Part shown: positions 8,049-63,024 of the stretch, one piece after another
Position numbering within the stretch: the stretch's first letter is position 1
How the letters are laid out: every line of letters begins with the position of its first letter
NCBI GenBank assembly: GCA_039929125.1
Contig: JBDSRV010000073.1
Coordinates: forward strand, 16,639 to 80,638
From: Sphingomicrobium sp.
GTDB lineage: Bacteria > Pseudomonadota > Alphaproteobacteria > Sphingomonadales > Sphingomonadaceae
Length of the DNA stretch: 64,000 nt
Direction of reading: 5' to 3'
The notes under the pieces: model-generated
What the model was told of the DNA's origin: nothing
Seen by the model: only the letters and a program-made list of their open reading frames with translations
The model's database searches: none
Program-made: the position numbers and the translations under genes

Positions 8049-10502
8049 GTGAGTCCCGGCGCGCCCTTGCCGATCGACGAGGTCTTGCCCGACTTGCTGG
8101 CCGCGCTGCGCACCGGCCCTCGGGCGCTGCTGGTGGCGCCGCCGGGCGCGGGCAAGACGACCCGGGTTGCCCCGGCCTTGCTCGCCGAGCCTTGGTGCGC
8201 AGGCCAAGTCCTGCTGCTCGTCCCCCGCCGTCTCGCCGCCCGCGCGGCGGCCGAGTTTATGGCGCGCGAGGCCGGCGAAGCGGCGGGCGCCACGATCGGC
8301 TACCAGACACGGCTCGACAGCAAGGTCGGCAAGGCGACGCGGGTCATCGCCATGACCCACGGCGTGTTCCTCGCCCGGCTTCAGGCCGACCCCGAACTGG
8401 CCGGCGTTTCGGCGGTGCTGTTCGACGAGGTCCATGAGCGCAGCCTCGACAACGACCTCGCGCTGGCCCTCGCGCTCGACGCCGCGGCCGAGCTTCGTCC
8501 CGACCTCAGGATCCTCGCCATGTCGGCGACCCTCGACGGGGAGCGGTTCGCGCGCCTGCTCGGCGATCCCCCGCGCATCGTCAGCGAAGGCAAGAGCTTC
8601 CCGCTGACCCTGGTCCAGGCCGGCCGCGACCCGGCGGCGCGGATCGAGCCGCAGATGGCCGCCGCCATCCGCCGCGCGCTCGGCGACCACGACGGCTCCT
8701 TGCTCGCCTTCCTCCCTGGAGTCGCCGAGATCGAGCGTACCGCCGAAGCGCTTGGCGCCCTGCCGCCGGGGGTGGTGTTGCACAAGCTTCACGGCGGCAT
8801 CGACCCCGCCGCCCAGCGCGCCGCGCTGGCCCCACCCGCGCCGGGAACGCGCAAGCTGGTGCTGGCGTCGTCGATCGCCGAGACCAGCCTGACCCTCGAC
8901 GACGTCCGCATCGTCGTCGATTCGGGCCTCGCCCGGCGTCCTCGCTACGAGCGCGGCGCCGGCCTCACCCGACTGGTCACCGAGCGCGCCAGCCGCGCCG
9001 CCGCCACCCAGCGCGCCGGTCGGGCCGCGCGCCAGGGGCCGGGCGTCGCCATCCGTTTGTGGGAGGAAGCCGCCAACGCCGCTTTGCTCGCCCACGACCC
9101 GCCCGAAATCCTCGACGCCGATCTGTCGAGCTTGGCGCTGACCTGCTTGCTGTGGGGCGAGGCCAACGCGGCGCGACTGCCTTTCCTCGATCCGCCGCCC
9201 GCCGCCGCGCTGGCCGAAGCGCGCGAGCGGCTGACCCGGCTCGGCGCGCTCGACGAGGATGGCCGCCTGACCGCCCACGGCCGCGCCATCGCCGCCATCC
9301 CGCTCGACCCGAGCCTCGCCCACATGCTGATCGAGGCAAAGGCTCGCGGCTTCGCCCGGTCCGCCGCCGACGCCGCCGTCCTCCTCACCGAGCGCGGGCT
9401 TGGCGGCAACGACCCCGACCTCGAGCTCCGTCACCGCCGCTGGCACAGCGAACGCGGCCCCCGCGCCGAAGGGGCCAGACGGATGGCCGCGCGCTGGGCA
9501 GGCTCATCGGCCCCTGACGTAAACATAAACCAGAGCCACCTCGATCTTGCCATCGCCCTCGCCTTCCCTGAACGCCTCTCCCGCCGCCGCGATTCATCGG
9601 GCGAGCAGTGGCAATCGGTTGGCGGTCGCGGCTTCCGCCTCGATCCCGCCAGCCCCCTCGCCCGCAGCGAATGGCTGGCGGTGGCCGAAGTCGCCGGCGC
9701 TGCGTCTGGCGCGCGCATCCTGTCCGCCGCGGCGATCACGCTGGGCGACATCGAAAGCCTGTTCGGCGACCGCATCGAGGCGTTCCGCGAGGTGCGCTTC
9801 GACCCCGCCAGCGGCGCGATGACCGCCACGCGCGGCCGCCGCCTCGGCGCCATCCGCCTGTCCTCCGCGCCCGACCCGAAACCCGACGCGGCGGCGATCG
9901 AGGCCGGGTTGATCGAGGCCGTCCGCCGCCACGGCCTCGCCGTCCTGCCATGGCCCGGCAGCGCCGCCGCGCTGCGCCAGCGCGCCGCCTTCGCCAGGGT
10001 TCATGACGATACGATCGAAGACCTATCGGATGCCGCGCTGATCGCCCGCCTCGACCAATGGCTCTCCCCGCTCGTCGCCGGCAAGCGCCGCCTCGACGCG
10101 ATCGACCCCGGCGCCCTCCGCCACGCGCTCGACGCTTTGCTCGGTTATGACGGGCAGCGCGCGGTCGATCGCCTCGCCCCGACCCACTTCACCTCGCCCG
10201 CCGGATCGGCCCACCCGATCGACTATGCCGCGCCCGGCGGCCCGGCCGTCGAAGTCCGCGCCCAGGCGCTATACGGCCTCAAGGCACATCCCATGGTCGG
10301 CGGCGGGCGGGTGCCGCTGACGCTGGCGATCACCTCGCCCGCCCACCGCCCGATCCAGACCACCAGGGATCTTCCCGCTTTCTGGGCCGGCAGCTGGCGC
10401 GACGTCGCCAAGGACATGCGCGGCCGCTACCCCAAGCATCCGTGGCCCGACGACCCCGCCGCCGCCCCGCCGACGCTGAGGACGAAGCGCGCCGGGCCTT
10501 GA
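8049..10502 (+). CDS. hrpB: ATP-dependent helicase HrpB
   Basis: PPGAGKTT, FDEVHER, MSAT, QRAGRAAR; C-terminal FWAGSWRDVAKDMRGRYPKHPWP. Confidence 0.95.
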   Translation: MSPGAPLPIDEVLPDLLAALRTGPRALLVAPPGAGKTTRVAPALLAEPWCAGQVLLLVPRRLAARAAAEFMAREAGEAAGATIGYQTRLDSKVGKATRVIAMTHGVFLARLQADPELAGVSAVLFDEVHERSLDNDLALALALDAAAELRPDLRILAMSATLDGERFARLLGDPPRIVSEGKSFPLTLVQAGRDPAARIEPQMAAAIRRALGDHDGSLLAFLPGVAEIERTAEALGALPPGVVLHKLHGGIDPAAQRAALAPPAPGTRKLVLASSIAETSLTLDDVRIVVDSGLARRPRYERGAGLTRLVTERASRAAATQRAGRAARQGPGVAIRLWEEAANAALLAHDPPEILDADLSSLALTCLLWGEANAARLPFLDPPPAAALAEARERLTRLGALDEDGRLTAHGRAIAAIPLDPSLAHMLIEAKARGFARSAADAAVLLTERGLGGNDPDLELRHRRWHSERGPRAEGARRMAARWAGSSAPDVNINQSHLDLAIALAFPERLSRRRDSSGEQWQSVGGRGFRLDPASPLARSEWLAVAEVAGAASGARILSAAAITLGDIESLFGDRIEAFREVRFDPASGAMTATRGRRLGAIRLSSAPDPKPDAAAIEAGLIEAVRRHGLAVLPWPGSAAALRQRAAFARVHDDTIEDLSDAALIARLDQWLSPLVAGKRRLDAIDPGALRHALDALLGYDGQRAVDRLAPTHFTSPAGSAHPIDYAAPGGPAVEVRAQALYGLKAHPMVGGGRVPLTLAITSPAHRPIQTTRDLPAFWAGSWRDVAKDMRGRYPKHPWPDDPAAAPPTLRTKRAGP

Positions 10503-10533
10503 TTTGGCGCCGCGCCTGCGCCATCGCCGCGCC

Positions 10534-10815
10534 ATGGCCATTGCCCGCATCGTCGAGGAACAGCGCAACACCACCCAGTCGGGCAAGGCCCGCCAGGGCC
10601 GCTGGCTGCTCGATTACGAGCGGACCGAGCCGCAGCGCCCCGATCCGCTGACCGGCTGGTCGGGGTCGGGCGATACCGACACCCAGATCCGGTTGAGCTT
10701 CGACAGCAAGGAGGAGGCCATGGCCTTCGCCGCGCGAAAAGGGCTGGAGGTTCACCTCGTCCCATCGGCCCCCGTGTCGCTGAAGCTGCAGGCCTACGCC
10801 GACAACTTCCGCTAG
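10534..10815 (+). CDS. ETC complex I subunit conserved-region protein (NDUFS4-like)
   Basis: TQSGKA, DPLTGWSGSGDT, LSFDSKEEA, YADNF signature. Confidence 0.85.
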   Translation: MAIARIVEEQRNTTQSGKARQGRWLLDYERTEPQRPDPLTGWSGSGDTDTQIRLSFDSKEEAMAFAARKGLEVHLVPSAPVSLKLQAYADNFR

Positions 10816-10820
10816 GCGGC

Positions 10821-11705
10821 TCAGCCCGTGCCGCGTTCTTCAATGAAATCGCGGATCATCGGCTGCAGGCTGGTATTGTAATTGGCCAGCACGTGGCGCG
10901 TCTCGGCGACGTCGAAATGGGTCAGCAGCCGCTCGCCGTTCCAGAAATGAAGCGCGAACGCCGGCGCGGTGCCAAGGATCAGCGCGCGCCCATCGGGCTT
11001 GGCCGGATCGATCGTGTCGAGATCGAGCGCCAGCCACGGCGCGGTCGATGCGCATACGACCAAAGTCTTGCCCGCGAAGCTGGTCGCGATCGGGCGGTGG
11101 ACGTGGCCCGACAGCATGCCGACGATCTGCGTCGCCGGCTCGATCACGGCGTGCAGCCGCTGGACCCATTGCTCGCATGACAAGGCGCTCATCCAGTCGA
11201 TCCCGGTGTCGACCGGCGGATGATGGAGGATGATGACGGTCGGATCGTCGGGCCGCTCGGCCAGCCTTTGCTCGAGCCAGCCGATGCGCTGCTCGCACAG
11301 CATCCCGCCGTGGCGCCCGGGATCAAGCGTGTCGAGGACGATGAAGCGCAGCCCGCCATGGTCGGTTTCATGCTGGATGAAGCCATTGGGGTCGGTCGGC
11401 ACCTCGGGCAGGACGGTGCTGAAATTGGCGCGGTCGTCGTGGTTGCCGACGGCCCAGATCAATTTGCCCGGCCAGCGCGCGACCAGCGCCCGCACATGGC
11501 GATAAGCGTCCAGATCCTCGCCATTCTCGACCAAGTCGCCGCTGACGATCAGCAGCTCGGGCCGCGGGCTCATCTTGACCAGCTCGTCGATCGCCATGTT
11601 GAGGCGCCGAACGTTCAATTCGGTCGGATTACCGGGATCAAAGCCGATATGGAGATCGGTGATCTGCGCCACCAGCAGGTCGCGCTGCGGAACAGCTTTC
11701 GGCAA
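10821..11705 (-). CDS. Icc/CpdA-like metallophosphoesterase (cyclic nucleotide phosphodiesterase family)
   Basis: DLH, SGDL, GNHD, HHPP, GHVH calcineurin-like motifs. Confidence 0.88.
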   Translation of the reverse strand: MPKAVPQRDLLVAQITDLHIGFDPGNPTELNVRRLNMAIDELVKMSPRPELLIVSGDLVENGEDLDAYRHVRALVARWPGKLIWAVGNHDDRANFSTVLPEVPTDPNGFIQHETDHGGLRFIVLDTLDPGRHGGMLCEQRIGWLEQRLAERPDDPTVIILHHPPVDTGIDWMSALSCEQWVQRLHAVIEPATQIVGMLSGHVHRPIATSFAGKTLVVCASTAPWLALDLDTIDPAKPDGRALILGTAPAFALHFWNGERLLTHFDVAETRHVLANYNTSLQPMIRDFIEERGTG

Positions 11706-50126: not shown

Positions 50127-50152
50127 GGAAAGCCTCAGGAGCACCCGCCGTT
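50127..50152 (+). promoter_or_regulatory. Possible EcfG-type promoter of the receiver pair
   Basis: GGAAA-N17-CGTT, 28 nt before ATG 50181. Confidence 0.35.
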
Positions 50153-50180
50153 GGTCGGTTCAAGTCAGGGGACGCTTTCA

Positions 50181-50582
50181 ATGAAGCCATGTTCGTCCCT
50201 GCCTGGCAAAAACCCATCCCGCGCATGCATACTGGTTGCTGAGGACGAGCTGCTCCTCCGGATGATGATCAGCGACGAACTTCGCGACGCTGGCTATGAC
50301 GTGATCGAGGCATTCAGCGCTGATGAAGCAGCGGCCATATTGCGATCCGGCGCTCAGGTTGACTTGGTCCTTAGCGATGTTCGTATGCCCGGCTCGCTTG
50401 ACGGCTTGGGCCTTCTTACGATCGTAAAAGGAATGTCCCCCGACCTTCCGGTAATTATTATGTCAGCACATCTCCAGCCAAGCCTCGCTGCGTCGGACGG
50501 CGCAGCACAATTCTTAGCTAAGCCCTTCACGATGAGCCGAGTTGTGGAGGCCGTTGGAACCGAGTTATCGAAGATATCATGA
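50181..50582 (+). CDS. Single-domain response regulator
   Basis: LVAEDE, LSDVRMPG, IMSA, LAKPF; all canonical residues present. Confidence 0.88.
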   Translation: MKPCSSLPGKNPSRACILVAEDELLLRMMISDELRDAGYDVIEAFSADEAAAILRSGAQVDLVLSDVRMPGSLDGLGLLTIVKGMSPDLPVIIMSAHLQPSLAASDGAAQFLAKPFTMSRVVEAVGTELSKIS

Positions 50583-50986
50583 CGGCTGAAATTGCTAGCG
50601 GCAAAGTTGCTTCATCGATCTTAATTGTCGATGGCGACATTATCTCGCGGCATGTCATTGCAGATTACCTAAGGCACTGCGGATACAGCGTCGTGGAGGC
50701 TGCCAACGCAGAGGAAGCCTATGCTGGTTTGCAGGAGCCGACCCTCTCGATCGATGTCATCGTATGCGACGTAGCCGGGCTGGGTCCCAAGACCAGCTTC
50801 GAACTGGCAACCTGGGTACGAGCCAATCGTCCTGAGCTGGAGGTTAAGCTCGCCGGTGGCGTTGAGATGGCTGCTCAAACCGCAGCAGACCTTTGCGAGA
50901 ACGGACCCCGTCTAGCGCGGCCGTATGAACCCGAAGCTGTTATTGATTACATCAAACGATTGCGAGCGAGCCGCGACCGCAGCTGA
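50579..50986 (+). CDS. Atypical single-domain response regulator
   Basis: LIVDGD, VIVCD; LAGG replaces the S/T site and ARPY replaces the KP motif. Confidence 0.78.
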   Translation: MTAEIASGKVASSILIVDGDIISRHVIADYLRHCGYSVVEAANAEEAYAGLQEPTLSIDVIVCDVAGLGPKTSFELATWVRANRPELEVKLAGGVEMAAQTAADLCENGPRLARPYEPEAVIDYIKRLRASRDRS

Positions 50987-51597: not shown

Positions 51598-51807
51598 ATG
51601 ACATTACAGGAAAGCGTTTGGGCATTTCTTATCCAACGCGCCCCGAGACCTATTTGTGACCTTTGTATCTCTGACTACCTGGCAATAAGTCGCCTTCAGG
51701 TCGTTACAGCCGTCAGGTTCGCACAAAGCCGAGGGGCCGACCGCTTTACCGGACGCTGTTCGGGTTGCTGCACTCACCGGAAGGTGTCGGTGTTGTTTCA
51801 GGGCTGA
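51598..51807 (+). CDS. Small CxxC...CxxC putative zinc-binding protein (69 aa)
   Basis: ICDLC and RCSGCC; GGGGAAG upstream of ATG 51598. Confidence 0.55.
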   Translation: MTLQESVWAFLIQRAPRPICDLCISDYLAISRLQVVTAVRFAQSRGADRFTGRCSGCCTHRKVSVLFQG

Positions 51808-51842
51808 CGAGATTTTGCCGCAGCTCGCCCCGCATCGCGTGC

Positions 51843-51874
51843 GACTGTCCGCTTTCCACCCTTAGCGGACACTC
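51843..51874. repeat. Right palindromic repeat element
   Basis: GACTGTCCGCT-N10-AGCGGACACTC. Confidence 0.85.
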
Positions 51875-51995
51875 CCTTCCCCCCATGATCGTCCCCCCGT
51901 TCGTCGGTTGGCGGCGCCTGGGAGTCGATTGGTCGAACCCCGCTGGCCCCGCCCGTTCCAATCGCCAACAGGGCCCGCAAAGGGGTTCATTGTCG

Positions 51996-54080
51996 ATGTC
52001 GACTGCGCGTTTTCACCGCCTGGCGCTGCTCGCCGGGATTGCCTGGCTGATGCCGTTGCCGGCTGTCGCCCAGACGGCGCCCGCCGCTGCGCGGGCGCCC
52101 AAGGCGGCGACGGCCGCCCGCAAAATCTTCACGCCGGCCGATTTCGCCCGCTTCTCGCCGACCACGGCGTTCGACATGCTGGCCAACGTCCCCGGCTTCA
52201 CCATCCAGTCCGCCGACCAGGAGCGCGGGCTTGGCCAGGCGTCGGAGAATGTGCTGATCAACGGGCAGCGCGTCGCCAACAAGTCGGGCGGCGCGATCGA
52301 CCAGTTGCGCAAAGTGGCCGCCGCCAACGTCGAGCGGATCGAGATCGCCGACGCCGCGGGCCTCGGCATCGCCGGCCTGTCGGGCGAAGTCGCCAACGTC
52401 ATCGTCCAGGCCGGCGCCAAGGGCAGCGGCCAGTTCGAATGGCGGCCCCAGTTCCGCATCCATTACGCCCACCCCAACTGGTTCAAGGGATCCGCCAGTT
52501 ATTCCGACAAGGTCGGCCCGGTCGATTACACGATTGGCATCGACAATGGCTCCAACCGCGGCGCCTTTGGTGGCCCGGTCTCGATCTTCGACCCGCTTGG
52601 CACCCGCTTTGAAGTCCGCAACCAGATTTCCACCAGCGATTTCGACCAGCCCAAGATGACCGCCCGGTTCAAGCTCGACGCGCCGGGATCGTCGGTCGCC
52701 AACCTGACGCTCGGCTACGGCCCTTATTGGTACAGCGGCAACACGCTCGAGCGCCGCGTGCGCACCGACGGCGACGATCGGACGCGCCTGACCCGGCAGA
52801 TCCAGAACGGCTATATGGTCGATTTCAACGGCGACTATGAATTCGCCCTCGGGCCGGGCCGGCTGAAGCTGATCGGCCTGCGCCATTTCGAGCATGAGCC
52901 GACCGTCACGACCCAGACCACCACGTTCGACAGCGGCGCCGACGCCCAGGGTATCCGCTTCACCCGCGACGCCCGCATCGGCGAGACCATCGGCCGCGCC
53001 GAATATGGCTTCAGGAGCGGCAAGAACGACTGGCAGCTGACGCTTGAGCGGGCCGACAACAAGCTTGCCCAGCGCGGTCGCCTGTTCGCGCTGTCGCCGT
53101 CGGGCACGTTTAACGAAATGCCGTTCCCCGAAGGCAGCGGCACGGTCGCCGAGACCCGCTACGAAGCCACCGGCACGCTCAGCCGCGCTTTGTCGTCGAA
53201 GCTCGACCTGCAATTGGTCGTGGGGGCCGAGGTGTCGAAGCTCGACCGCGTCGACGGCGACTTGCCGCCGCGCAAATTCTTCCGTCCCAAGGGCAGCCTG
53301 ACGCTCGGCTGGCGCCCGGCCAAGGGGTGGGACGCCAGCTTCAAGCTGCGCCGCCGGGTCGGGCAGATCAGTTTCTACGACTTCCTCGCCCAGCCCAATC
53401 TGCAGCAGGACCGCGAGAATAGCGGCAACCCCGACCTCGTCCCGCCGCAGAGCTGGGAGGCCGAGCTTGAGGCCGGCCGCGACCTTGGCGCGTGGGGCAA
53501 GACCCGGCTGAAGGTCTACGGCCACCGCATCGACGACATCATCGACATCATCCCCATCGGCGACGATGGCGAAGCGGTCGGCAACCTGCCCCGCGCGACC
53601 CGTTTTGGCCTGGTCTCGACCAGCACCATCCAGTTCGACCCGATCGGCTGGCGCGGGGCCAAGCTCGACCTCACCGTCGAAGCGTTGCAGACCAGCGTCC
53701 GCGATCCGCTGACCGGCCGCAAGCGCTCGATCAGCGACACGCAGGACCGCTCGGTCCAGCTATCGCTGCGCGACGACATTCCGCACAGCAAGATCGCCTG
53801 GGGCGCCGAGGTCAACTACAGCCACAACGGCAAAAGCTATTTCCTCAGCGAGATCGGGCGCGGTTGGGAAGGCCCGGTGTTTGCCAACCTCTACGTCGAG
53901 CACAAGGACGTATTCGGGTTCGACGTGACCTTGATCGCCGCCAATTTGCTCAACGCCCGCCACCATTTCAACCGCACGGTTTACGACGGCCGCCGGGAGC
54001 GCGACCCGGTGCGGTTCAGGCAGACGAGCGACGGGCTGATCGGGCCGATCTTCGCGGTCAAGGTCAAGGGCAGCTTCTAA
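51996..54080 (+). CDS. TonB-dependent receptor
   Basis: Signal peptide from ATG 51996, AFDMLANVPGF plug, GNPDLVP, NLLN, terminal GSF. Confidence 0.88.
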   Translation: MSTARFHRLALLAGIAWLMPLPAVAQTAPAAARAPKAATAARKIFTPADFARFSPTTAFDMLANVPGFTIQSADQERGLGQASENVLINGQRVANKSGGAIDQLRKVAAANVERIEIADAAGLGIAGLSGEVANVIVQAGAKGSGQFEWRPQFRIHYAHPNWFKGSASYSDKVGPVDYTIGIDNGSNRGAFGGPVSIFDPLGTRFEVRNQISTSDFDQPKMTARFKLDAPGSSVANLTLGYGPYWYSGNTLERRVRTDGDDRTRLTRQIQNGYMVDFNGDYEFALGPGRLKLIGLRHFEHEPTVTTQTTTFDSGADAQGIRFTRDARIGETIGRAEYGFRSGKNDWQLTLERADNKLAQRGRLFALSPSGTFNEMPFPEGSGTVAETRYEATGTLSRALSSKLDLQLVVGAEVSKLDRVDGDLPPRKFFRPKGSLTLGWRPAKGWDASFKLRRRVGQISFYDFLAQPNLQQDRENSGNPDLVPPQSWEAELEAGRDLGAWGKTRLKVYGHRIDDIIDIIPIGDDGEAVGNLPRATRFGLVSTSTIQFDPIGWRGAKLDLTVEALQTSVRDPLTGRKRSISDTQDRSVQLSLRDDIPHSKIAWGAEVNYSHNGKSYFLSEIGRGWEGPVFANLYVEHKDVFGFDVTLIAANLLNARHHFNRTVYDGRRERDPVRFRQTSDGLIGPIFAVKVKGSF

Positions 54081-56312: not shown

Positions 56313-57059
56313 TCAGCGCTCAAACTGCCCGACGTCGCTCTGGACGTAGCCGAACCAGGCGGCGATCGGCTTGCCGCTGGCGTCGGTCGCCGGGCGGAAG
56401 GCGGCGCGTTGCAGGACCAGCGAGCAGGTCCACTGATCGGTCATCGAATCGCCGAACGAGCGCATCACGTCGCACTGGCTGATCCGCCCGTCGGGCTGGA
56501 CTCGGACGCGCACGAAGACGCGCCCGCCGCGCGGCCAATTATGCTGGATCGCGGGCGGATAGTCGCGGTTGGTGATGCCGCGGATCAGCCTGACGCCGGT
56601 TCCACCGCTTCCTCCACCCCCGCTGCCGTTGCCCGAGCCGCCGCTGCCGGTGCCCGTCCCCGCGCCGCCCGCCCCGGTGCCGGGCCCGACGACGTTCGAC
56701 GCGCCCTGGGTCGGCTTCGTGCCGGTGTTGGGGGTCGGCGAGGTGACGATCTTGGGCGGAGTCGGCACGATCCCCCGCGGCTTGGGCCGCATCACCGGGG
56801 TCGCCTTGCTTTCCAGATTCTTGGCCGAAGCGGCGCCCTCCTCCTTCTTCGGCTTCGCCTTCTGCTCCTTGACGACCTCCACCACTGGCGGCGGCGGCGG
56901 GGGCACGGTGATGTCGAAGATCTGAAGGTTGGATTGTGGCGGCGTCAGGTGGAGATTGCCGCTCAGGTTGAGCAAGGCAAGGCCGAGCCCGACGTGGATC
57001 AGGATCACGACAAGGATGGTCGCGGCGCGGTCGCGCGGGCGGATGGCGGGGCGGTACAT
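56313..57059 (-). CDS. tonB: TonB-family energy transducer
   Basis: N-terminal TM with His, Pro/Lys-rich then Gly-rich linker, C-terminal DYP...GRVFVRVRV...FRPA domain. Confidence 0.85.
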   Translation of the reverse strand: MYRPAIRPRDRAATILVVILIHVGLGLALLNLSGNLHLTPPQSNLQIFDITVPPPPPPVVEVVKEQKAKPKKEEGAASAKNLESKATPVMRPKPRGIVPTPPKIVTSPTPNTGTKPTQGASNVVGPGTGAGGAGTGTGSGGSGNGSGGGGSGGTGVRLIRGITNRDYPPAIQHNWPRGGRVFVRVRVQPDGRISQCDVMRSFGDSMTDQWTCSLVLQRAAFRPATDASGKPIAAWFGYVQSDVGQFER

Positions 57060-57069
57060 CGGCCAAGTG

Positions 57070-57096
57070 AACGCTGTTTGGCGTCCCGAAGTTTCC
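57070..57096 (-). promoter_or_regulatory. Possible EcfG-type promoter of tonB
   Basis: GGAAAC-N17-CGTT ending 10 nt before the ATG. Confidence 0.35.
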
Positions 57097-57267
57097 TCGC
57101 CGGAACGAGTTTGACCGGCGAGGATGCCGAGTCGTTTCGGGCAGCACGTCCGCGCACCCCTTGCCATCATCAGGAAATGCGGGGGAAAAGTGGTTAATTT
57201 CGTGTTTAATTTGACTTATATTAAAAATATAGCGAATTTAACGGGCTTCATAGGTGGGGAATTCGAC

Positions 57268-58827
57268 ATGGAAGCTACAGCCTCGAATCAGCGTCGTTAT
57301 CTTGCGTCCGCGGCAATCGTGCTTGCCGTTGCAGCCGGAGCGTACACTATCGGCCGCGTCTATCCGCCGCTCGGGCCGTCCGCAGGGACGATTGCCCCGG
57401 CCGACCGCTACGTCGAGGCGCAGATCGGTGCCGATGATGTCAACCTTGGCGACACGTCGATCCCGCAGCTGATGCAGACCGACGCGTTCGAAGTCATTTC
57501 GAAGAACCCTGATTTCCGCAACATGGCCAATGACCCGGGCTTCTCCGCGCTGTTGGCCAACGGACCGGCGATGGCCGCCATTGCCGCCAACCCCGGTGCA
57601 TTCAGCGCCATCTCAAGGGATCCCAAGGCGTTCGCCGAAATGGCCAGCGTCGCGGCGCTCGCCAAGGCGCGAATGGTCGACATGCAGGCCCAGACCGGGG
57701 CCATGGCATCGGTTATCGCGACCCACGCACAGACCTTCTCCTACATGGCCGACAAGCATCCGCAGGCACTCGCTTCGATGATGGCCAATGCGGCGCAGCT
57801 CGGGGTGATCGCCAAGGATCCCAAAGCCCTCGACACGGGTGCGCTGGCCAGTGCCATCTCCCGCGGCCCGGGCGGCCCACAGGCTGCGCAGCAGCTGATG
57901 GCCGACGCCAACGCTATGCAGCGGCTCAAGGCCGATACCGGGATGCTGGCGTCAATGGCCGACCATGCCGCCGCGTTTAAAGGGATTGCAGGCAATGCTC
58001 AGCTGATGGCCGCGGCTGTCAAGCAAGGTGAAGCAATGAGCCGCATCGGCGTCAGCGGTCAGGCCATGGGCGACCTTGCGTCGCTGATGTCGACCCATGC
58101 CGCCGCACTGAATGCGCTTGGGACCGAGCCCAAGGCGCTGGCCTCAATCGCCCAGCACGCCGCTTTCTACAAAGCGATGACTGAGCACGCCGCGGCGAGC
58201 CAGGCGTTGCTGGCCACCGGCATGGCTGTGAAATGGGCGCGCGATCCGGGCGCCTTCGCCACGAATGCGGCGAACATCCCGCAAATGGCCGCGCATGCCG
58301 CCGACCTCAAGGCGATGGCCGCCGACGCGAGGCTGCAAGCGGCGATGCGATCCGACACCGGCGCCCTCGCGTCGATGGCGGCCAGTGCCCAGTCGCTTCA
58401 AGCGATCGCCAGCAACGCGGCGCTGTTCAATACCGGGATGAGCCAGCGGGCCCTGGCTTCGATTGCGGCCAATTCGTCGATGCGCGTGGTCGGCGCTCGG
58501 CCGATGGACCTGGCAATGGCGGCCCGCGCGGCGATGTCGCTCAACGCCATCTCCAGCGCTGCCAGTCTCGCCGCGAATAGCCAGATCAGCGCCGCTGCGG
58601 CGTCGAAGATCGCGGTCAATTCGCAGGCCTTCGCGCAAATGGCGAATTCGCCCGGCGCGTTCGCCAAGCTTGCGAGCAACGGCTCTGCCATGGCCTCGCT
58701 CGCCGCGAATACCGGGATGATGGCCCGTCTGGCCTCGATCAACGGCGCGATGGCGATGATGAGCAACCCGGCGCTGGCACAGGCGATGCAGCAGATGGCC
58801 GTCACCGGGATACGTTCGCGCGAGTAG
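57268..58827 (+). CDS. Ala/Met-rich decapeptide-repeat protein with N-terminal membrane/signal segment (519 aa)
   Basis: RRYLASAAIVLAVAAGAY segment; ~10-residue periodic repeats; no family recognised. Confidence 0.85.
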   Translation: MEATASNQRRYLASAAIVLAVAAGAYTIGRVYPPLGPSAGTIAPADRYVEAQIGADDVNLGDTSIPQLMQTDAFEVISKNPDFRNMANDPGFSALLANGPAMAAIAANPGAFSAISRDPKAFAEMASVAALAKARMVDMQAQTGAMASVIATHAQTFSYMADKHPQALASMMANAAQLGVIAKDPKALDTGALASAISRGPGGPQAAQQLMADANAMQRLKADTGMLASMADHAAAFKGIAGNAQLMAAAVKQGEAMSRIGVSGQAMGDLASLMSTHAAALNALGTEPKALASIAQHAAFYKAMTEHAAASQALLATGMAVKWARDPGAFATNAANIPQMAAHAADLKAMAADARLQAAMRSDTGALASMAASAQSLQAIASNAALFNTGMSQRALASIAANSSMRVVGARPMDLAMAARAAMSLNAISSAASLAANSQISAAAASKIAVNSQAFAQMANSPGAFAKLASNGSAMASLAANTGMMARLASINGAMAMMSNPALAQAMQQMAVTGIRSRE

Positions 58828-58836
58828 TCGGTAATG

Positions 58837-58858
58837 GGGGCCGCGTCCGCGCGGCCCC
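58837..58858 (+). terminator. Intra-operon hairpin (weak terminator or RNA stabiliser)
   Basis: GGGGCCGCG-TCCG-CGCGGCCCC perfect 9-bp stem followed only by TTAAG. Confidence 0.55.
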
Positions 58859-58875
58859 TTAAGCTTGGGGGGCTG

Positions 58876-61800
58876 ATGAGGAAACCAGTTGTTCGCGGCC
58901 ACGCCGCGACGGCCTGTGCGTTGGGACTCCTGCTTGGCGGCACGTCCAGCCTTGCCTGTGCGCAGACCCAGCCTGCACCGCCGCCGCCCAACCCTTCGAC
59001 CACGATCAGCGAACCGACGCCGGCCCCGGACGAGACGCCGCCCGCGACCACGCCAAATTCCGAGCGCAAGCTGCCCGAACACGTCCCGCAGGACGCGTCG
59101 GGGATCGACCTGTCGACGCTCGAGACCAACGATTTCAAATTGCTCTATTTCGACCCGGTGCAGACCTATCTGACGCCCTATGTCGCCCGGGCGCTGACCA
59201 ATTCGCTGCGGTTTCACGAGGAAAAATTCCATTGGAAGCAGTGGGATCGCTCGACCATCCTGCTCAAGGACTTCGGCGACTATGGCAACGCCGGCGCGCG
59301 CTCGTCGCCCAACAACGCCGTGCTGCTCGACGTCGCGCCGCTCAGCCAGACAATGGAGACGTTCAGCCCGGGCGAACGTTTCTTCACGCTGTCGAACCAC
59401 GAGCTGGCACACGTCGCGACGATGGACGTGTGGAACAACACCGACGCCTTCTGGCGCAGGCTGTTCGCCGGCAAGGTGCAGCCGATCCAGGAACATCCCG
59501 AATCGATCCTCTACAACTTCCTCGTCACCCCGCGGGTCAACGCCCCGCGCTGGCAGCTGGAGGGCACGGCCGTGTTCTTCGAGACGTGGATGGCCGGCGG
59601 GCTCGGACGCGCCCAGGGCGGCTATGACGAGATGGTGTTCCGGGCGATGGTCCGCGACCACGCCAAATTCTACTCGCCGCTGGGCCTCGAATCCGAAGGC
59701 ACGGCGATCGACTTCCAGGTCGGCGTCAACGACTATCTCTATGGCACCCGGTTCGTGTCGTACCTGGCGCTCAAATATGGCCCGGACAAGGTCCTCCAGT
59801 GGCTCCGCCGCGACGAGGATAGTGCCGGCTATTACGCCAGCCAGTTCCACCGCGTGTTCGGGCAGAAGCTCGACCGCAGCTGGGCCGACTGGATCGGCTT
59901 CGAGCACGAGTTCCAGGCGAAGAACCTCGCCGCTTTGAGCCAATATCCGCTGACCGAGGTCCAGCACCTCACCCCACGTGGCCTCGGCTCAGTGTCGCGA
60001 ACCTATTACGACGCCAAGACCAACAGCCTGGTCGGCGCCTTCAAATATCCCGGCGTGATCGCTTATGTCGGCACGCTGTCGCTGGCCGACGGCAAGCTCC
60101 ATCACCTTGCCGACCTCAAGGGTTCGATGCTCTACCGGGTCACCAGCATCGCCTTCGATCCCGACGCGCGCACTGCTTATTACACCGAGGACAACCACGC
60201 CTTCCGCGACCTCGTTGCCCTGAACATCGACACCGGCAAGAAACGCCGCCTGCTGACCGATGCGCGCATCGGCGACCTGGTCATCAACCCGCGCGACAAG
60301 TCGATCTGGGGCATCCGCCACCAGAACGGCTATGCCACCATCGTCCGTATCCCGGCGCCCTATGCCGGGTTCAACCAGATCAATACGTTCGACTATGGCC
60401 AGATCCCGTTCGACCTCGACATTTCGGCCGACGGGTCGATGGTCTCCGCGTCGTTCGGCGAGGTTGACGGCAAGCAATCGGTCCGGGTGTGGCGCGCCGA
60501 TCAGTTCGAGCAAGGCGGCGGGCCCAACGAAATCGCCCGCCTCGACATGCCGCCGTCGACTCCGGAGGGGTTCGTCTTCGCGCCCGACGGCAAGTCGCTG
60601 GTCGGCACCAGCTACTACACCGGCGTGTCCAACGTCTTCCGCTTCGATATCGCCAGCGGGAAATATGAAGCGCTGACCAATGCCTCGACCGGCTTTTTCC
60701 ACCCGATGGTGTGCCCCGACGGCAGCCTGTTCGTCCAGGAATTCACCGGCGAGGGGCTGACGCCGTCGATCATCAAGCCGCAGGTGCGCGAGGATCTAGG
60801 CACCGTCAGCTTCCTCGGCACGCAGGTCATCCACGCCCATCCGGAACTCAAGAGCTGGGGGGTGGGATCGCCGGCCAAGATCGACCTTGAGCCGCTGATC
60901 ACCGCGCGCAGCCACTACAAACCCGGCAAGGAGATGAAGCTGGCCGCCGCCTTCCCGATCGTCGAAGGCTATCTCGGCCGCCCGACGTTCGGCTATTATT
61001 TCCACTTCGAAGACCCGCTGCAATTCCGCCAGCTGAGCGGGTCGTTCAGCGCGTCCCCGTTTGGCCACGGCCGTCTCAGCGACCGGCTCCACGCCGACGT
61101 CGAGTATAAGACGCTCGACTGGAAATTCCGCTATTGGCACAACGACGCCGACATTTACGACCTCGCCGGGCCGATCAAGCGCAGCCGCAAGGGCGACGCG
61201 GTCATCGCCAGCTACAACAAGACCAAGATTTACGATCCCCCGCGCCAGCTCGACGTGTTCGGCAGCGTCGCCGGCTATTTCGGCCTCGAGCAGCTGCCCG
61301 CGGCGCAAAACATCCTCAGCCCGAAGAATATCTTCTCTTCCGAGTTCGGCACCCGTTATACCAACACCGTCAAGTCGCTCGGCGGCGTCGACCATGAGAA
61401 GGGGTTTGCCGCGCGGCTTATCGGCGGGCTCGACTGGGCAGATCGCCATGCCTTCCCGCACCTTTCGGGCGGGGTCGATTATGGCATCCCGCTGCCGATC
61501 GCCAACAGTTCGGCGTGGATTTACGCGCACGGCGGCATCGTCGGCGGCGACCGCAGCAGCCCGCTCGGCGCCTTCTACTTCGGGTCGTTCCGCAACAACT
61601 ATGTCGATAACCGGCCGGAGAAACGCTACCGCGAGCTCGAAAGCTTCCCCGGTTTCGACATCGACCAGATCGTCTCGCGCAAGTTCGCCAAGGTCACCGG
61701 CGAAATCAATTTGCCGCCACTGCGCTTCGCCGAAATTGGCACGCCGGCCTTTTACCTGAGCTATGCGCGCCCGGCCTTGTTCGCCGGGACGATGCTGACC

Positions 61801-61974
61801 CAGTCGCCCGGCCGGCGCAATTACCGCCTGTCCAATATCGGCGCGCAGGTCGACCTGGCGTTCACCGTGGCGCTGCGTCTGCCGATGATCTTCTCATTCG
61901 GGATTGCCAAAGGCTTTGGCGACAAGGATATCGATGGCAACACCGAATTCCTCACGTCGCTCAAAATCATGTAG
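58876..61974 (+). CDS. Outer-membrane protein: zincin-like peptidase + TolB/PD40-like beta-propeller + C-terminal beta-barrel
   Basis: Signal peptide, HELAH plus WQLEGTA, repeated SADG/APDG/CPDG blades, alternating-pattern C-terminal strands. Confidence 0.75.
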   Translation: MRKPVVRGHAATACALGLLLGGTSSLACAQTQPAPPPPNPSTTISEPTPAPDETPPATTPNSERKLPEHVPQDASGIDLSTLETNDFKLLYFDPVQTYLTPYVARALTNSLRFHEEKFHWKQWDRSTILLKDFGDYGNAGARSSPNNAVLLDVAPLSQTMETFSPGERFFTLSNHELAHVATMDVWNNTDAFWRRLFAGKVQPIQEHPESILYNFLVTPRVNAPRWQLEGTAVFFETWMAGGLGRAQGGYDEMVFRAMVRDHAKFYSPLGLESEGTAIDFQVGVNDYLYGTRFVSYLALKYGPDKVLQWLRRDEDSAGYYASQFHRVFGQKLDRSWADWIGFEHEFQAKNLAALSQYPLTEVQHLTPRGLGSVSRTYYDAKTNSLVGAFKYPGVIAYVGTLSLADGKLHHLADLKGSMLYRVTSIAFDPDARTAYYTEDNHAFRDLVALNIDTGKKRRLLTDARIGDLVINPRDKSIWGIRHQNGYATIVRIPAPYAGFNQINTFDYGQIPFDLDISADGSMVSASFGEVDGKQSVRVWRADQFEQGGGPNEIARLDMPPSTPEGFVFAPDGKSLVGTSYYTGVSNVFRFDIASGKYEALTNASTGFFHPMVCPDGSLFVQEFTGEGLTPSIIKPQVREDLGTVSFLGTQVIHAHPELKSWGVGSPAKIDLEPLITARSHYKPGKEMKLAAAFPIVEGYLGRPTFGYYFHFEDPLQFRQLSGSFSASPFGHGRLSDRLHADVEYKTLDWKFRYWHNDADIYDLAGPIKRSRKGDAVIASYNKTKIYDPPRQLDVFGSVAGYFGLEQLPAAQNILSPKNIFSSEFGTRYTNTVKSLGGVDHEKGFAARLIGGLDWADRHAFPHLSGGVDYGIPLPIANSSAWIYAHGGIVGGDRSSPLGAFYFGSFRNNYVDNRPEKRYRELESFPGFDIDQIVSRKFAKVTGEINLPPLRFAEIGTPAFYLSYARPALFAGTMLTQSPGRRNYRLSNIGAQVDLAFTVALRLPMIFSFGIAKGFGDKDIDGNTEFLTSLKIM

Positions 61975-61983
61975 GCAGACGCT

Positions 61984-63024
61984 ATGGCAGTGGCTGAAAT
62001 CCTGAACTGGTCGATCGCGCTCGTCCCGGTGCTGGCAATGGTCGCGTTGTTCGTGTGGCTCGACATCTTCAAGCTGATGAGCCTGAGCGAGCTGCTCGTC
62101 CTGCTGCTCGCGGGTGGCGTCGTCGCCATCATCGCCTACCCCATCAGCGGCCAGCTGATCGACGTCCTGCCGCTCGGCTTTTCCTATTACAGCCGGTTCA
62201 TTGCGCCGTGGATCGAGGAGTCGCTCAAGGCGCTGGCGGTGATCAGCCTCTTCTACTTCAACCGCATCGGCTACAAGCTCGACGCGGTGATCTCCGGCTT
62301 CGCTATCGGCGCCGGCTTCTCGGTGGTCGAAAATATCCTCTATCTGATGCGCTTTCCCGACCTCGCGCCGACGGTGTGGATGGTGCGTGGCCTTGGCACG
62401 GCGTTGATGCACGGCGCGACCTGCGCGACGCTCGCCGCCATCGCCCACGAGCTTGCCGAGCGCGAGAATCGCGAAGCGGCGTCGGACTTCAACTTCAACC
62501 CCTTGTGGGTCGTCCCCGGGCTGATCGTCGCGGCCGCGATCCACACCTTGTTCAACCAGTTCCCCGACCAGCCGATGACCGCCATGCTCGGCGCCCTGGT
62601 CGGCACGCCGTTGCTGTTGATGGGGATCTTCCAGTTCGGGTCGACCGAGGCACGCGGCTGGTTGCTTGAGGAAAGCGCCGACCACCGCGCCGCGCTTGAC
62701 GCGCTCGAAGCCGGGCGCTTCCCCGATACAGCCAGCGGGCGCCGTATCGCGGCGCTGGCCGACCGCGTCGGCGGTGCCCAGGCCGAGCGCATCCGCGACT
62801 ATCTGACCACCGCCATGCGGCTGACCGTCGCCGCGGAGGAGAAACTGCTCGGCAAGCCGGTGCCGCCCAAGGACGAGCTTGAGGCCGCCTTCACCCACCT
62901 CGAGCAGTCGCGCGAGGCGATCGGTCGCACGGGTTTCTCGGCGCTCGAGCCGCTGCTGCCCTTCAGCCGCAACGATTTGTGGGAAGTGAAGGAGCTGCGC
63001 GAGGACTTGCGCAAGGACGGTTAG
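61984..63024 (+). CDS. prsW: PrsW family intramembrane metalloprotease
   Basis: APWIEESLK, GAGFSVVEN, LMHG, IHTLFN motifs; multiple TM helices. Confidence 0.85.
   Translation: MAVAEILNWSIALVPVLAMVALFVWLDIFKLMSLSELLVLLLAGGVVAIIAYPISGQLIDVLPLGFSYYSRFIAPWIEESLKALAVISLFYFNRIGYKLDAVISGFAIGAGFSVVENILYLMRFPDLAPTVWMVRGLGTALMHGATCATLAAIAHELAERENREAASDFNFNPLWVVPGLIVAAAIHTLFNQFPDQPMTAMLGALVGTPLLLMGIFQFGSTEARGWLLEESADHRAALDALEAGRFPDTASGRRIAALADRVGGAQAERIRDYLTTAMRLTVAAEEKLLGKPVPPKDELEAAFTHLEQSREAIGRTGFSALEPLLPFSRNDLWEVKELREDLRKDG

Follow-up and report, generated by a model that had tools for sequence, protein, structure and literature searches.

The FecR/FecA system couples an outer-membrane transducer to an inner-membrane single-pass anti-sigma factor and a sigma factor of the extracytoplasmic function (ECF) type, with proteolytic activation. 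PrsW acts as site-1 protease on the anti-sigma factor RsiW, cutting its extracytoplasmic part (PMC3482391). Phage CDHS-1 of Clostridioides difficile has a receptor-binding protein, Gp22, that contains a right-handed alpha-helical superhelix with three parallel helices per turn, built from helices of 5-14 residues joined by loops of 1-3 residues (10.1101/2021.07.05.451159). We analysed a 64,000-nucleotide stretch of a Sphingomicrobium sp. genome (GCA_039929125.1, contig JBDSRV010000073.1, positions 16,639 to 80,638; hereafter the window). It carries a gene for a helical-repeat protein, REP, whose closest mechanistic analogue is the Bacillus subtilis system of sigma-W, RsiW, PrsW (site-1) and RasP (site-2), and which in structure comes closest to the Gp22 superhelix. 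REP evolves fast and stands first in a three-gene cassette:

57268..58827, forward strand: REP (repeat protein gene), 519 amino acids plus stop
58834..61974, forward strand: BIG, 1046 amino acids, with a signal peptide, Pro/Thr linker, HExxH peptidase domain, TolB-like beta-propeller and C-terminal beta-barrel
61984..63024, forward strand: PrsW-family intramembrane protease, 346 amino acids (Pfam PF13367, E = 2.6e-20), two genes downstream of REP

On balance, we lean towards REP being the sensor or tether of a proteolytic envelope device, a rod-like solenoid that in this genome operates without a sigma factor.

We read and translated the REP open reading frame (ORF). A sequence-only reading of this DNA had proposed a 519-residue Ala/Met protein built from a 10-residue helical repeat; the ORF, its length and every peptide string quoted were recovered in the translation. 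REP contains 145 Ala (28%) and 39 Met. It has few aromatic residues (12 Phe, 6 Tyr and 1 Trp) and zero Cys, as had been described, and Cys was absent from 68 of 68 orthologues. The Met content of the window REP (~7.5-7.9%, rank 2 of 68) was above the family mean of 3.9%. Met-richness is a lineage trait, not a family trait, and Met replaces Phe at the core position. We rejected a copper-binding Met-rich protein, as the Met-richness is lineage-specific and there is no MxxM/His pattern. A spurious GC-rich ORF was also rejected, since the frame was conserved with held length in 67 complete orthologues. Searches of the window REP against Pfam, NCBIfam, PHROGs and PADLOC gave zero family matches.

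The claimed 10-residue period stood out from composition-matched shuffles, with z = 4.8-5.9 at lag 10 (1000 composition-preserving shuffles). The lag-10 signal was seen for hydrophobic positions (z = 5.7), residue identity (z = 5.9) and turn-type residues (z = 4.8). We observed weaker autocorrelation peaks at lags 20 and 30, and no signal at lags 9 or 11. A unit position matrix learned from eight REP orthologues gave the unit [A/S/G/R]-[N/D/Q/H]-[P/A/S]-x-A-[F/M/L]-x-A-[L/I/M]-[A/S]. Scanning with this matrix found 12 strong units in the window REP compared to 0.7 +/- 0.8 (max 5) in shuffles, and ~29 units in each of the orthologues. We also recovered the larger internal duplication that had been noted. 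It spans ~125 residues (residues ~146-253 against ~270-393; self-alignment z = 7.9), and the equivalent comparison in orthologues reached z = 20-31. Tandem Repeats Finder detected zero tandem repeats at the DNA level in the REP gene. The repeat features, with helices from an AlphaFold2 (AF2) model, are:

57538..57651, forward strand: first run of 10-residue helix units, residues 91-128; matrix units at 97, 107 and 117; AF2 helices 90-96, 99-107 and 109-116
57703..58026, forward strand: duplication copy A, residues ~146-253 (the self-alignment at z = 7.9)
58075..58446, forward strand: duplication copy B, residues ~270-393; the orthologue length classes lie ~120 residues (one block) apart
58585..58797, forward strand: C-terminal run of 10-residue units, residues 440-510 (NSQAFAQMAN-SPGAFAKLAS-NGSAMASLAA…); AF2 helices 442-450, 452-460, 462-469, 472-480 and 482-489

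Ahead of the repeats, REP has a membrane anchor and a conserved segment:

57268..57297, forward strand: cytoplasmic tail, residues 1-10 (MEATASNQRR), polar, with Arg-Arg ahead of the hydrophobic stretch and without an anti-sigma domain
57298..57354, forward strand: signal-anchor or transmembrane helix, residues 11-29 (YLASAAIVLAVAAGAYTIG), hydrophobic; AF2 helix 4-31; aligns with the internal transmembrane helix of anti-sigma-type relatives
57355..57537, forward strand: juxtamembrane module, residues 30-90 (RVYPPLGPSAGTIAPADRY…DVNLGD…LMQTDAFEVISKNPDFRNMAN), with invariant columns; predicted local distance difference test (pLDDT) below 50 for residues 1-68

REP reads as an N-in signal anchor because the Arg-Arg pair precedes residues 11-29, as the positive-inside rule expects. 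The module follows the consensus GTIAPAxRY…DVxLGD…LMQTDAF, and the columns P33, P34, G40, T41, I42, R47, Y48, Q52, D57, V58, L60, Q70, D72 and F83 are invariant among relatives. No other part of REP is conserved throughout the wider family. Across 107 residues, the transmembrane helix and module aligned to anti-sigma-type relatives with 29-58% identity, and these relatives carry 100-250 extra N-terminal residues where the window REP has 10. Judged by this alignment, the extracytoplasmic start of REP and the periplasmic part of ECF anti-sigma factors are homologous. The earlier suggestion of a recognition or cleavage signal in the N-terminal segment held up in part: the segment is the sole family-wide conserved region and is unfolded on its own in the AF2 model, and its role in cleavage is putative.

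To place REP among its relatives, we used an exhaustive phmmer search, which returned 328 proteins. Most matched residues ~5-130 only, a stretch covering anchor, module and first repeats, and in many of them the match began ~100-160 residues into the protein. The N-terminal extensions are anti-sigma-like (MHAVLDGxATPxE…). Their zf-HC2 and DUF4880 Pfam matches are borderline (P0126 reached 22.1 bits for zf-HC2 against a 22.2-bit cut-off), and the anti-sigma-domain scores of P0108, P0008 and P0280 are weak. Fusion of REP to such an anti-sigma-like N-domain was seen in P0008, P0009, P0108, P0126 and P0280. At locus L093, the gene after a fused REP encodes a BIG homologue with 48% identity across 823 residues. 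At L095, the stop of an ECF sigma gene (Sigma70_r2/r4_2) overlaps the REP start. Among 80 metagenome loci the order ECF sigma, REP, BIG, PrsW recurs, and Pfam confirms the sigma and PrsW genes; the complete four-gene order is present at L097, L116, L118, L121, L130, L136, L147, L154, L157 and L173. At L157, the sigma gene is followed by a separate 254-residue anti-sigma protein and then by an unfused REP. BIG homologues encoded in the four-gene form, seen on soil metagenome contigs, bear the label 'hypothetical protein' in Burkholderiales, Usitatibacter, Myxococcales and Gemmatimonadota metagenome-assembled genomes. Fused, split and sigma-less forms of REP all exist, so the constant core is REP-BIG-PrsW. 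These data suggest that the cassette is wired to a stress (ECF) sigma factor in other bacteria.

The tails of these relatives differ in length and regularity. Across the wider family they range from ~180 to 550 residues, and the unit length (9 or 10) and unit sequence vary by lineage, from near-perfect to degenerate, with the module constant. The L157 REP (9968-11263) has a tail of ~40 near-perfect nine-residue repeats (LLGNAQFAE). Near-perfect nine-residue arrays were also observed in L130, L141, L154, L164, L165, L171 and L175.

We then compared the window genome with the four-gene form. The window REP lacks an anti-sigma domain: it has 10 residues before the transmembrane helix, and zero Pfam or NCBIfam matches. 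Immediately upstream of REP we found no cognate ECF sigma gene; a divergent TonB-like gene stands there. Of the four ECF sigmas encoded in the genome, each has 30-36% identity to a cassette sigma; cassette sigmas themselves share 45-71% identity with the reference cassette sigma that served as query. Given the low identity of its four ECF sigmas, the window carries a truly sigma-less version. The window REP therefore has neither of the two features that define an anti-sigma factor (domain and cognate sigma), yet it is homologous to proteins that have both.

Within sphingomonads the cassette is kept as a unit. The window genome assembly comprises 2.0 Mb in 73 contigs. REP orthologues were present in 16 of 24 same-genus genomes, and REP, BIG and PrsW were co-present or co-absent in these 24 with one exception, G007, in which BIG is cut off at the start of the open frame. 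We gathered a set of 80 related genome loci with a 5-sequence module alignment. REP, BIG and PrsW were collinear in every sufficiently long locus, and the genes flanking the cassette, such as G6PD, TonB and HPPD, varied. The orthologue loci belong to Sphingomicrobium and Sphingomonas and include S. rhizophila KACC 19189, S. hankyongi, S. edaphi, S. caseinilyticus, S. chungangi and S. alba. Between species, identity was 33-45% for REP, 60-70% for BIG and 50-60% for PrsW. A module search in a 400-genome sample of the phylum gave zero matches outside the window's own genome, so the family is patchy.

The length of the REP tail is held despite this sequence divergence. Periplasmic length had a median of 482 residues (interquartile range 479-492, n = 67). 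Among the sphingomonad loci (L013-L092) the length classes were ~360, ~480 (the main class) and ~520-550 residues, the longer class having 40-60 residues more. The ~360 class is shorter by about one copy of the internally duplicated ~120-125-residue block. Length classes one block apart suggest that REP gains or loses whole blocks under a length constraint.

Ten predicted orthologue sequences from eight named-strain genomes had zero exact matches in the protein collection, and the public names of ten distant relatives were absent or 'hypothetical protein'. A word-indexed protein search returned 8 REP relatives only, probably owing to swamping by low-complexity words. In three of these 8, P0005, P0006 and P0007 (loci L001 and L002; ENA assemblies), the sequence shifts into Arg-rich frames; PTRRRSRRWP, for example, is the +1 frame of ANAQAFEALA. 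Because neighbouring genes are also fragmented, these frame switches suggest long-read frameshift errors and not biology.

The two partner genes follow REP closely, with 6 nt from the REP stop to the BIG start and 10 bases from BIG to the PrsW gene, and the PrsW gene always lies directly after the 1046-residue BIG gene. The HELAH motif of BIG was invariant in 32 homologues (H189, E190 and H193). AF2 modelled BIG with a pLDDT of 81.8 and a predicted template modelling score (pTM) of 0.81, placing domains at residues 93-370 (helical/mixed peptidase), 376-650 (beta-propeller) and ~690-1046. The last of these is a barrel with ~16 long strands in the model and a conserved terminal SLKIM. Foldseek matched the propeller to TolB (E = 4e-9), and the Omp85_2 Pfam matches among BIG homologues were weak. 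BIG is a predicted outer-membrane protein composed of an HExxH peptidase, a propeller and a barrel. It resembles the POTRA-less proteins of the 'WD40-Omp85' cluster of Heinz and Lithgow (PMC4104836). Metagenomes contain more than 5,500 BIG homologues; the named ones are mostly 'hypothetical protein', with a few called 'TolB family protein'. The PrsW-family protein has an EESLK motif, conserved His residues and a C-terminal soluble extension of ~120 residues.

To assess the fold of REP, we used AF2 with a 12-sequence alignment (mean pLDDT 73, pTM 0.68). Residues 1-68 had a pLDDT below 50 and were followed by a string of 7-9-residue helices, interrupted by long helices at 119-152, 264-285, 298-316 and 412-436. 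The repeat part is predicted to comprise ~45 short helices in helix-turn units of 9-10 residues, N/D-P capped and with an A-[F/M/L]-x-A-[L/I/M]-A core. Foldseek searches of the AF2 model against PDB and BFVD gave nothing below E = 0.2, 7QLR included. A monomer model with fold search, as the sequence-only reading had suggested, thus returned the short-helix array and zero significant structural matches.

The family profile matched one solved structure, 7QLR_A (E = 3.7e-10, residues 160-499), which is Gp22 of phage CDHS-1. The Gp22 stretch scored 43.3 bits against the profile, compared to -5.8 +/- 3.6 (max 4.3) for 300 shuffled targets. Periodicity in the matched stretch was z = 7.0, 5.7 and 5.9 at lags 10, 20 and 30. 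An orthologue with cleaner repeats matched phrog_7809, a tail fibre family, at 8e-13, whereas the window REP alone had zero phmmer matches in PDB. Small extra peaks at lags 30 and 60 were weak, occurred in some relatives only and were not seen in the window REP. Because the family profile matches the Gp22 superhelix with equal periodicity, a Gp22-like alpha-solenoid is the most likely fold of REP. The alpha-solenoid proposed earlier is in line with both the AF2 array and the 7QLR match. The likeness of REP to Gp22 may reflect common descent or convergence.

We propose a mechanism in which REP would be an N-in/C-out inner-membrane protein, with the ~60-residue module followed by a long right-handed superhelical rod. 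With ~45 helices at 3 per turn, the rod would make ~15 turns and span ~15 nm. It may reach toward the periplasmic domains of BIG, and the conserved membrane-proximal module could serve as a docking or cleavage site. The BIG peptidase and/or PrsW, as a site-1-type protease, would cut REP. Where an anti-sigma domain is attached, cleavage would free the sigma factor. The window REP is sigma-less, so the output of cleavage here would not be direct sigma release; it may instead consist in releasing or turning over the rod, or in controlling BIG. We infer a sensor or tether because of the anti-sigma fusions and splits, the constant PrsW and peptidase neighbours, and the module as the sole family-wide conservation. 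Periodicity, anchor, conservation of module and cassette, and the fusions and splits with anti-sigma and ECF genes are observed features of the family.

Several points weigh against this mechanism. Contact of REP with BIG and cleavage of REP are both inferred, as is the superhelix geometry. The three-helices-per-turn arrangement draws on sequence-profile similarity, since Foldseek gave no significant match, 7QLR included, together with the weak lag-30/60 bumps in relatives. The hydrophobic N-terminus of REP could be a cleaved signal peptide, cut between AGA and Y, and not an anchor. The repeats of the window REP are the most degenerate of the alignment set, with a lag-10 identity of z = 5.4 compared to 7-14 in eight full-length orthologues. 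Finally, the window REP has no anti-sigma domain or adjacent sigma gene, and the best ECF sigma of the genome reaches 33-36% identity to cassette sigmas, so REP has no defined signalling output here.

A bolder version of the proposal, which we treat as speculative and think unlikely as it stands, makes REP a length-calibrated trans-envelope probe. The superhelix of ~15 turns would just reach the peptidase or propeller of BIG, an Omp85-type barrel. A change in envelope spacing or in the outer membrane would then lead BIG to trim the tail, after which PrsW would cut the module. The set-point would be tuned by repeat number, which changes by units of 9-10 residues and blocks of 125 residues, and sigma-less lineages would have a non-transcriptional output.

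About as unlikely in our judgement is a passive periplasmic spacer or scaffold, in which a rigid rod of fixed length positions or holds BIG's periplasmic domains at a given distance from the inner membrane, REP is no protease substrate and PrsW acts elsewhere. The narrow spread of periplasmic length (interquartile range 479-492) and the block-sized changes, despite 33-45% identity, would fit such a rod, as would the rod-like predicted fold and the sigma-less form seen in the examined sphingomonad loci and several other lineages. However, tails of ~180 to 550 residues in the wider family are not those of a fixed-length spacer, and the anti-sigma fusions with a constant PrsW site-1-type protease point to proteolytic signalling.

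The sequence-only reading had also likened the repeat to STI1 domains and suggested a periplasmic holdase. In this reading, Met/Phe grooves would cradle hydrophobic segments, such as unfolded outer-membrane proteins or lipoprotein tails, and pass them to the BIG barrel or peptidase. STI1-HOP_DP matched 5 of 12 family members at E <= 0.01 (best E = 7.8e-9), and XPC-binding matched 6 of 12 (best E = 1.9e-8). P0113 and P0127, both REP relatives, also match STI1/XPC-type Pfam models; P0113 scored 31.8 bits against STI1/HOP DP (PF17830; cut-off 29.1), and no single stretch passes alone. The window REP matched neither STI1-HOP_DP nor XPC-binding in Pfam. STI1/DP (PF17830) and XPC-binding (PF09280) domains share with REP short NP/DP-capped helices with Met, Phe or Leu at i and i+4. 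They differ in being single five- to six-helix cytosolic eukaryotic modules, whereas REP has ~45 units and is periplasmic. By these matches the STI1 likeness is real at the motif level only, as a repeated NP/DP-capped helix motif.

We consider a holdase improbable. These family matches, the high Met content in this lineage and a BIG barrel with weak Omp85_2 matches speak for it. They are countered by a window REP without a Pfam match, by family matches that reflect the capped-helix motif, and by Met-richness that is not family-wide (mean 3.9%). Near-perfect, fast-changing arrays would be unusual for a client-binding chaperone. There is also no link to energy or co-chaperones, and nothing found requires such a role.

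Even less probable is that REP acts in trans as an inhibitor or pro-segment, masking the HExxH site or propeller of BIG until PrsW removes it, and so would keep a degradative peptidase of the outer membrane under control. The strict adjacency of REP and BIG (a 6-nt gap here and one gene order in all loci) and the invariant catalytic motif of BIG are consistent with this, but fast repeat evolution disfavours a tight, specific interface, except possibly via the module.

A phage-derived fibre or tape-measure-like protein, or a polymerising surface fibre, has almost no credence left: apart from the profile likeness to CDHS-1 Gp22 and phrog_7809, there are zero phage genes nearby and the neighbours are chromosomal, an orthologue tblastn against 50,697 phage records gave zero matches, the window REP has no PHROGs match, the Gp22 match is limited to the repeat region with no beta-sandwich head in REP, and an N-terminal membrane anchor sits in a chromosomal cassette kept across many loci. 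We rejected phage origin on the chromosomal context and on the zero matches in phage records and PHROGs. A match to a phage tape-measure family, which the sequence-only reading had named as refuting its solenoid, was sought in PHROGs, in the phage tblastn and among the chromosomal neighbours, and none was found. Its suggestion of a polymerising surface or fibre subunit was not borne out, given the inner-membrane anchor, the two-protease cassette and the homology to the anti-sigma periplasmic part.

We also assessed the start site and the upstream region. The REP start at 57268 is backed by an upstream GGTGGGG, by AT-rich non-coding DNA and by orthologues that start at the equivalent residue. 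Two features lie upstream:

57253..57259, forward strand: ribosome-binding site GGTGGGG; GGGGG-rich sites occupy the equivalent place in orthologous loci
57211..57216, forward strand: TTGACT hexamer of a promoter-like motif, upstream of REP and followed by the AT-rich palindrome TATATTAAAAATATA

The motif TTGACT-N4-5-GTTAA(C) recurs ~55-65 nt 5' of the REP start codon in most sphingomonad loci (L013-L092), and frequently falls within a longer inverted repeat (GACTC…GAGTC). The motif could serve as a sigma-70-type -35 element, as an operator or in both roles. A sigma-70 consensus scan upstream of REP did not call it as a promoter. At 56313-57170 on the reverse strand, directly upstream of REP, is the divergent TonB-like gene (TonB_C, E = 4e-8). 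A TonB homologue ending <= ~300 nt from the REP start was seen in a minority of related loci (e.g. L013, L014, L016-L018, L043, L044, L047, L051, L065 and L072). Further upstream, a 771-residue ORF (51765-54080, forward strand) with a Plug domain match only is a candidate divergent TonB-dependent receptor. Two small response-regulator receiver ORFs lie upstream of it, at 50151-50986 on the forward strand.

Full-text literature searches found no paper on the cassette or the repeat family. The cassette is abundant in soil bacteria, with >5,000 BIG homologues and hundreds of REP relatives; where a public name exists, it is mostly 'hypothetical protein'. If the proposed sensor or tether is correct, the cassette would be a so far unstudied way to relay envelope information through two membranes, and it would give a function to POTRA-less 'WD40-Omp85' proteins. 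A length-calibrated probe, if true, would be a new principle of Gram-negative trans-envelope signalling. The hypothesis is directly testable in cultured carriers, among them Sphingomonas rhizophila, S. edaphi and S. hankyongi.

Among known systems, Gp22 shares with REP a 10-residue period and a unit of the type N-x-x-A-[F/M]-x-x-[I/L/V]-A, and its helix and loop lengths (5-14 and 1-3 residues) fit the secondary structure of the REP AF2 model. Unlike REP, Gp22 occurs in virions as a soluble protein and bears a C-terminal beta-sandwich head as well as a dimerising hairpin. It lacks a membrane anchor and a juxtamembrane module and has no gene context in common with REP. Through this repeat, a large bacterial family would join the single phage receptor-binding protein from which the rare three-helix-per-turn alpha-superhelix is known.

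The logic resembles that of FecR/FecA by analogy, in that an outer-membrane barrel may be paired with an anti-sigma-type protein whose periplasmic part reaches the barrel. Matches to DUF4880, the FecR N-terminal domain, were weak in fused REP relatives. Unlike FecR/FecA, BIG has no TonB-dependent transducer domain, REP has no FecR periplasmic domain and the protease is PrsW. With RsiW the likeness is one of architecture: REP is a single-pass membrane protein that has an extracytoplasmic tail and is encoded together with a PrsW-family protease, and its relatives carry an anti-sigma domain and follow an ECF sigma gene. Unlike RsiW, the window REP has no sigma factor or anti-sigma domain, and its tail is a long rod of 9-10-residue helical repeats with a conserved module. 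The REP hosts are diderm, and a third component, the outer-membrane HExxH peptidase/propeller/barrel protein, is always present. Within regulated proteolysis of membrane anti-sigma-type proteins, what is new is the tail fold and the outer-membrane partner.

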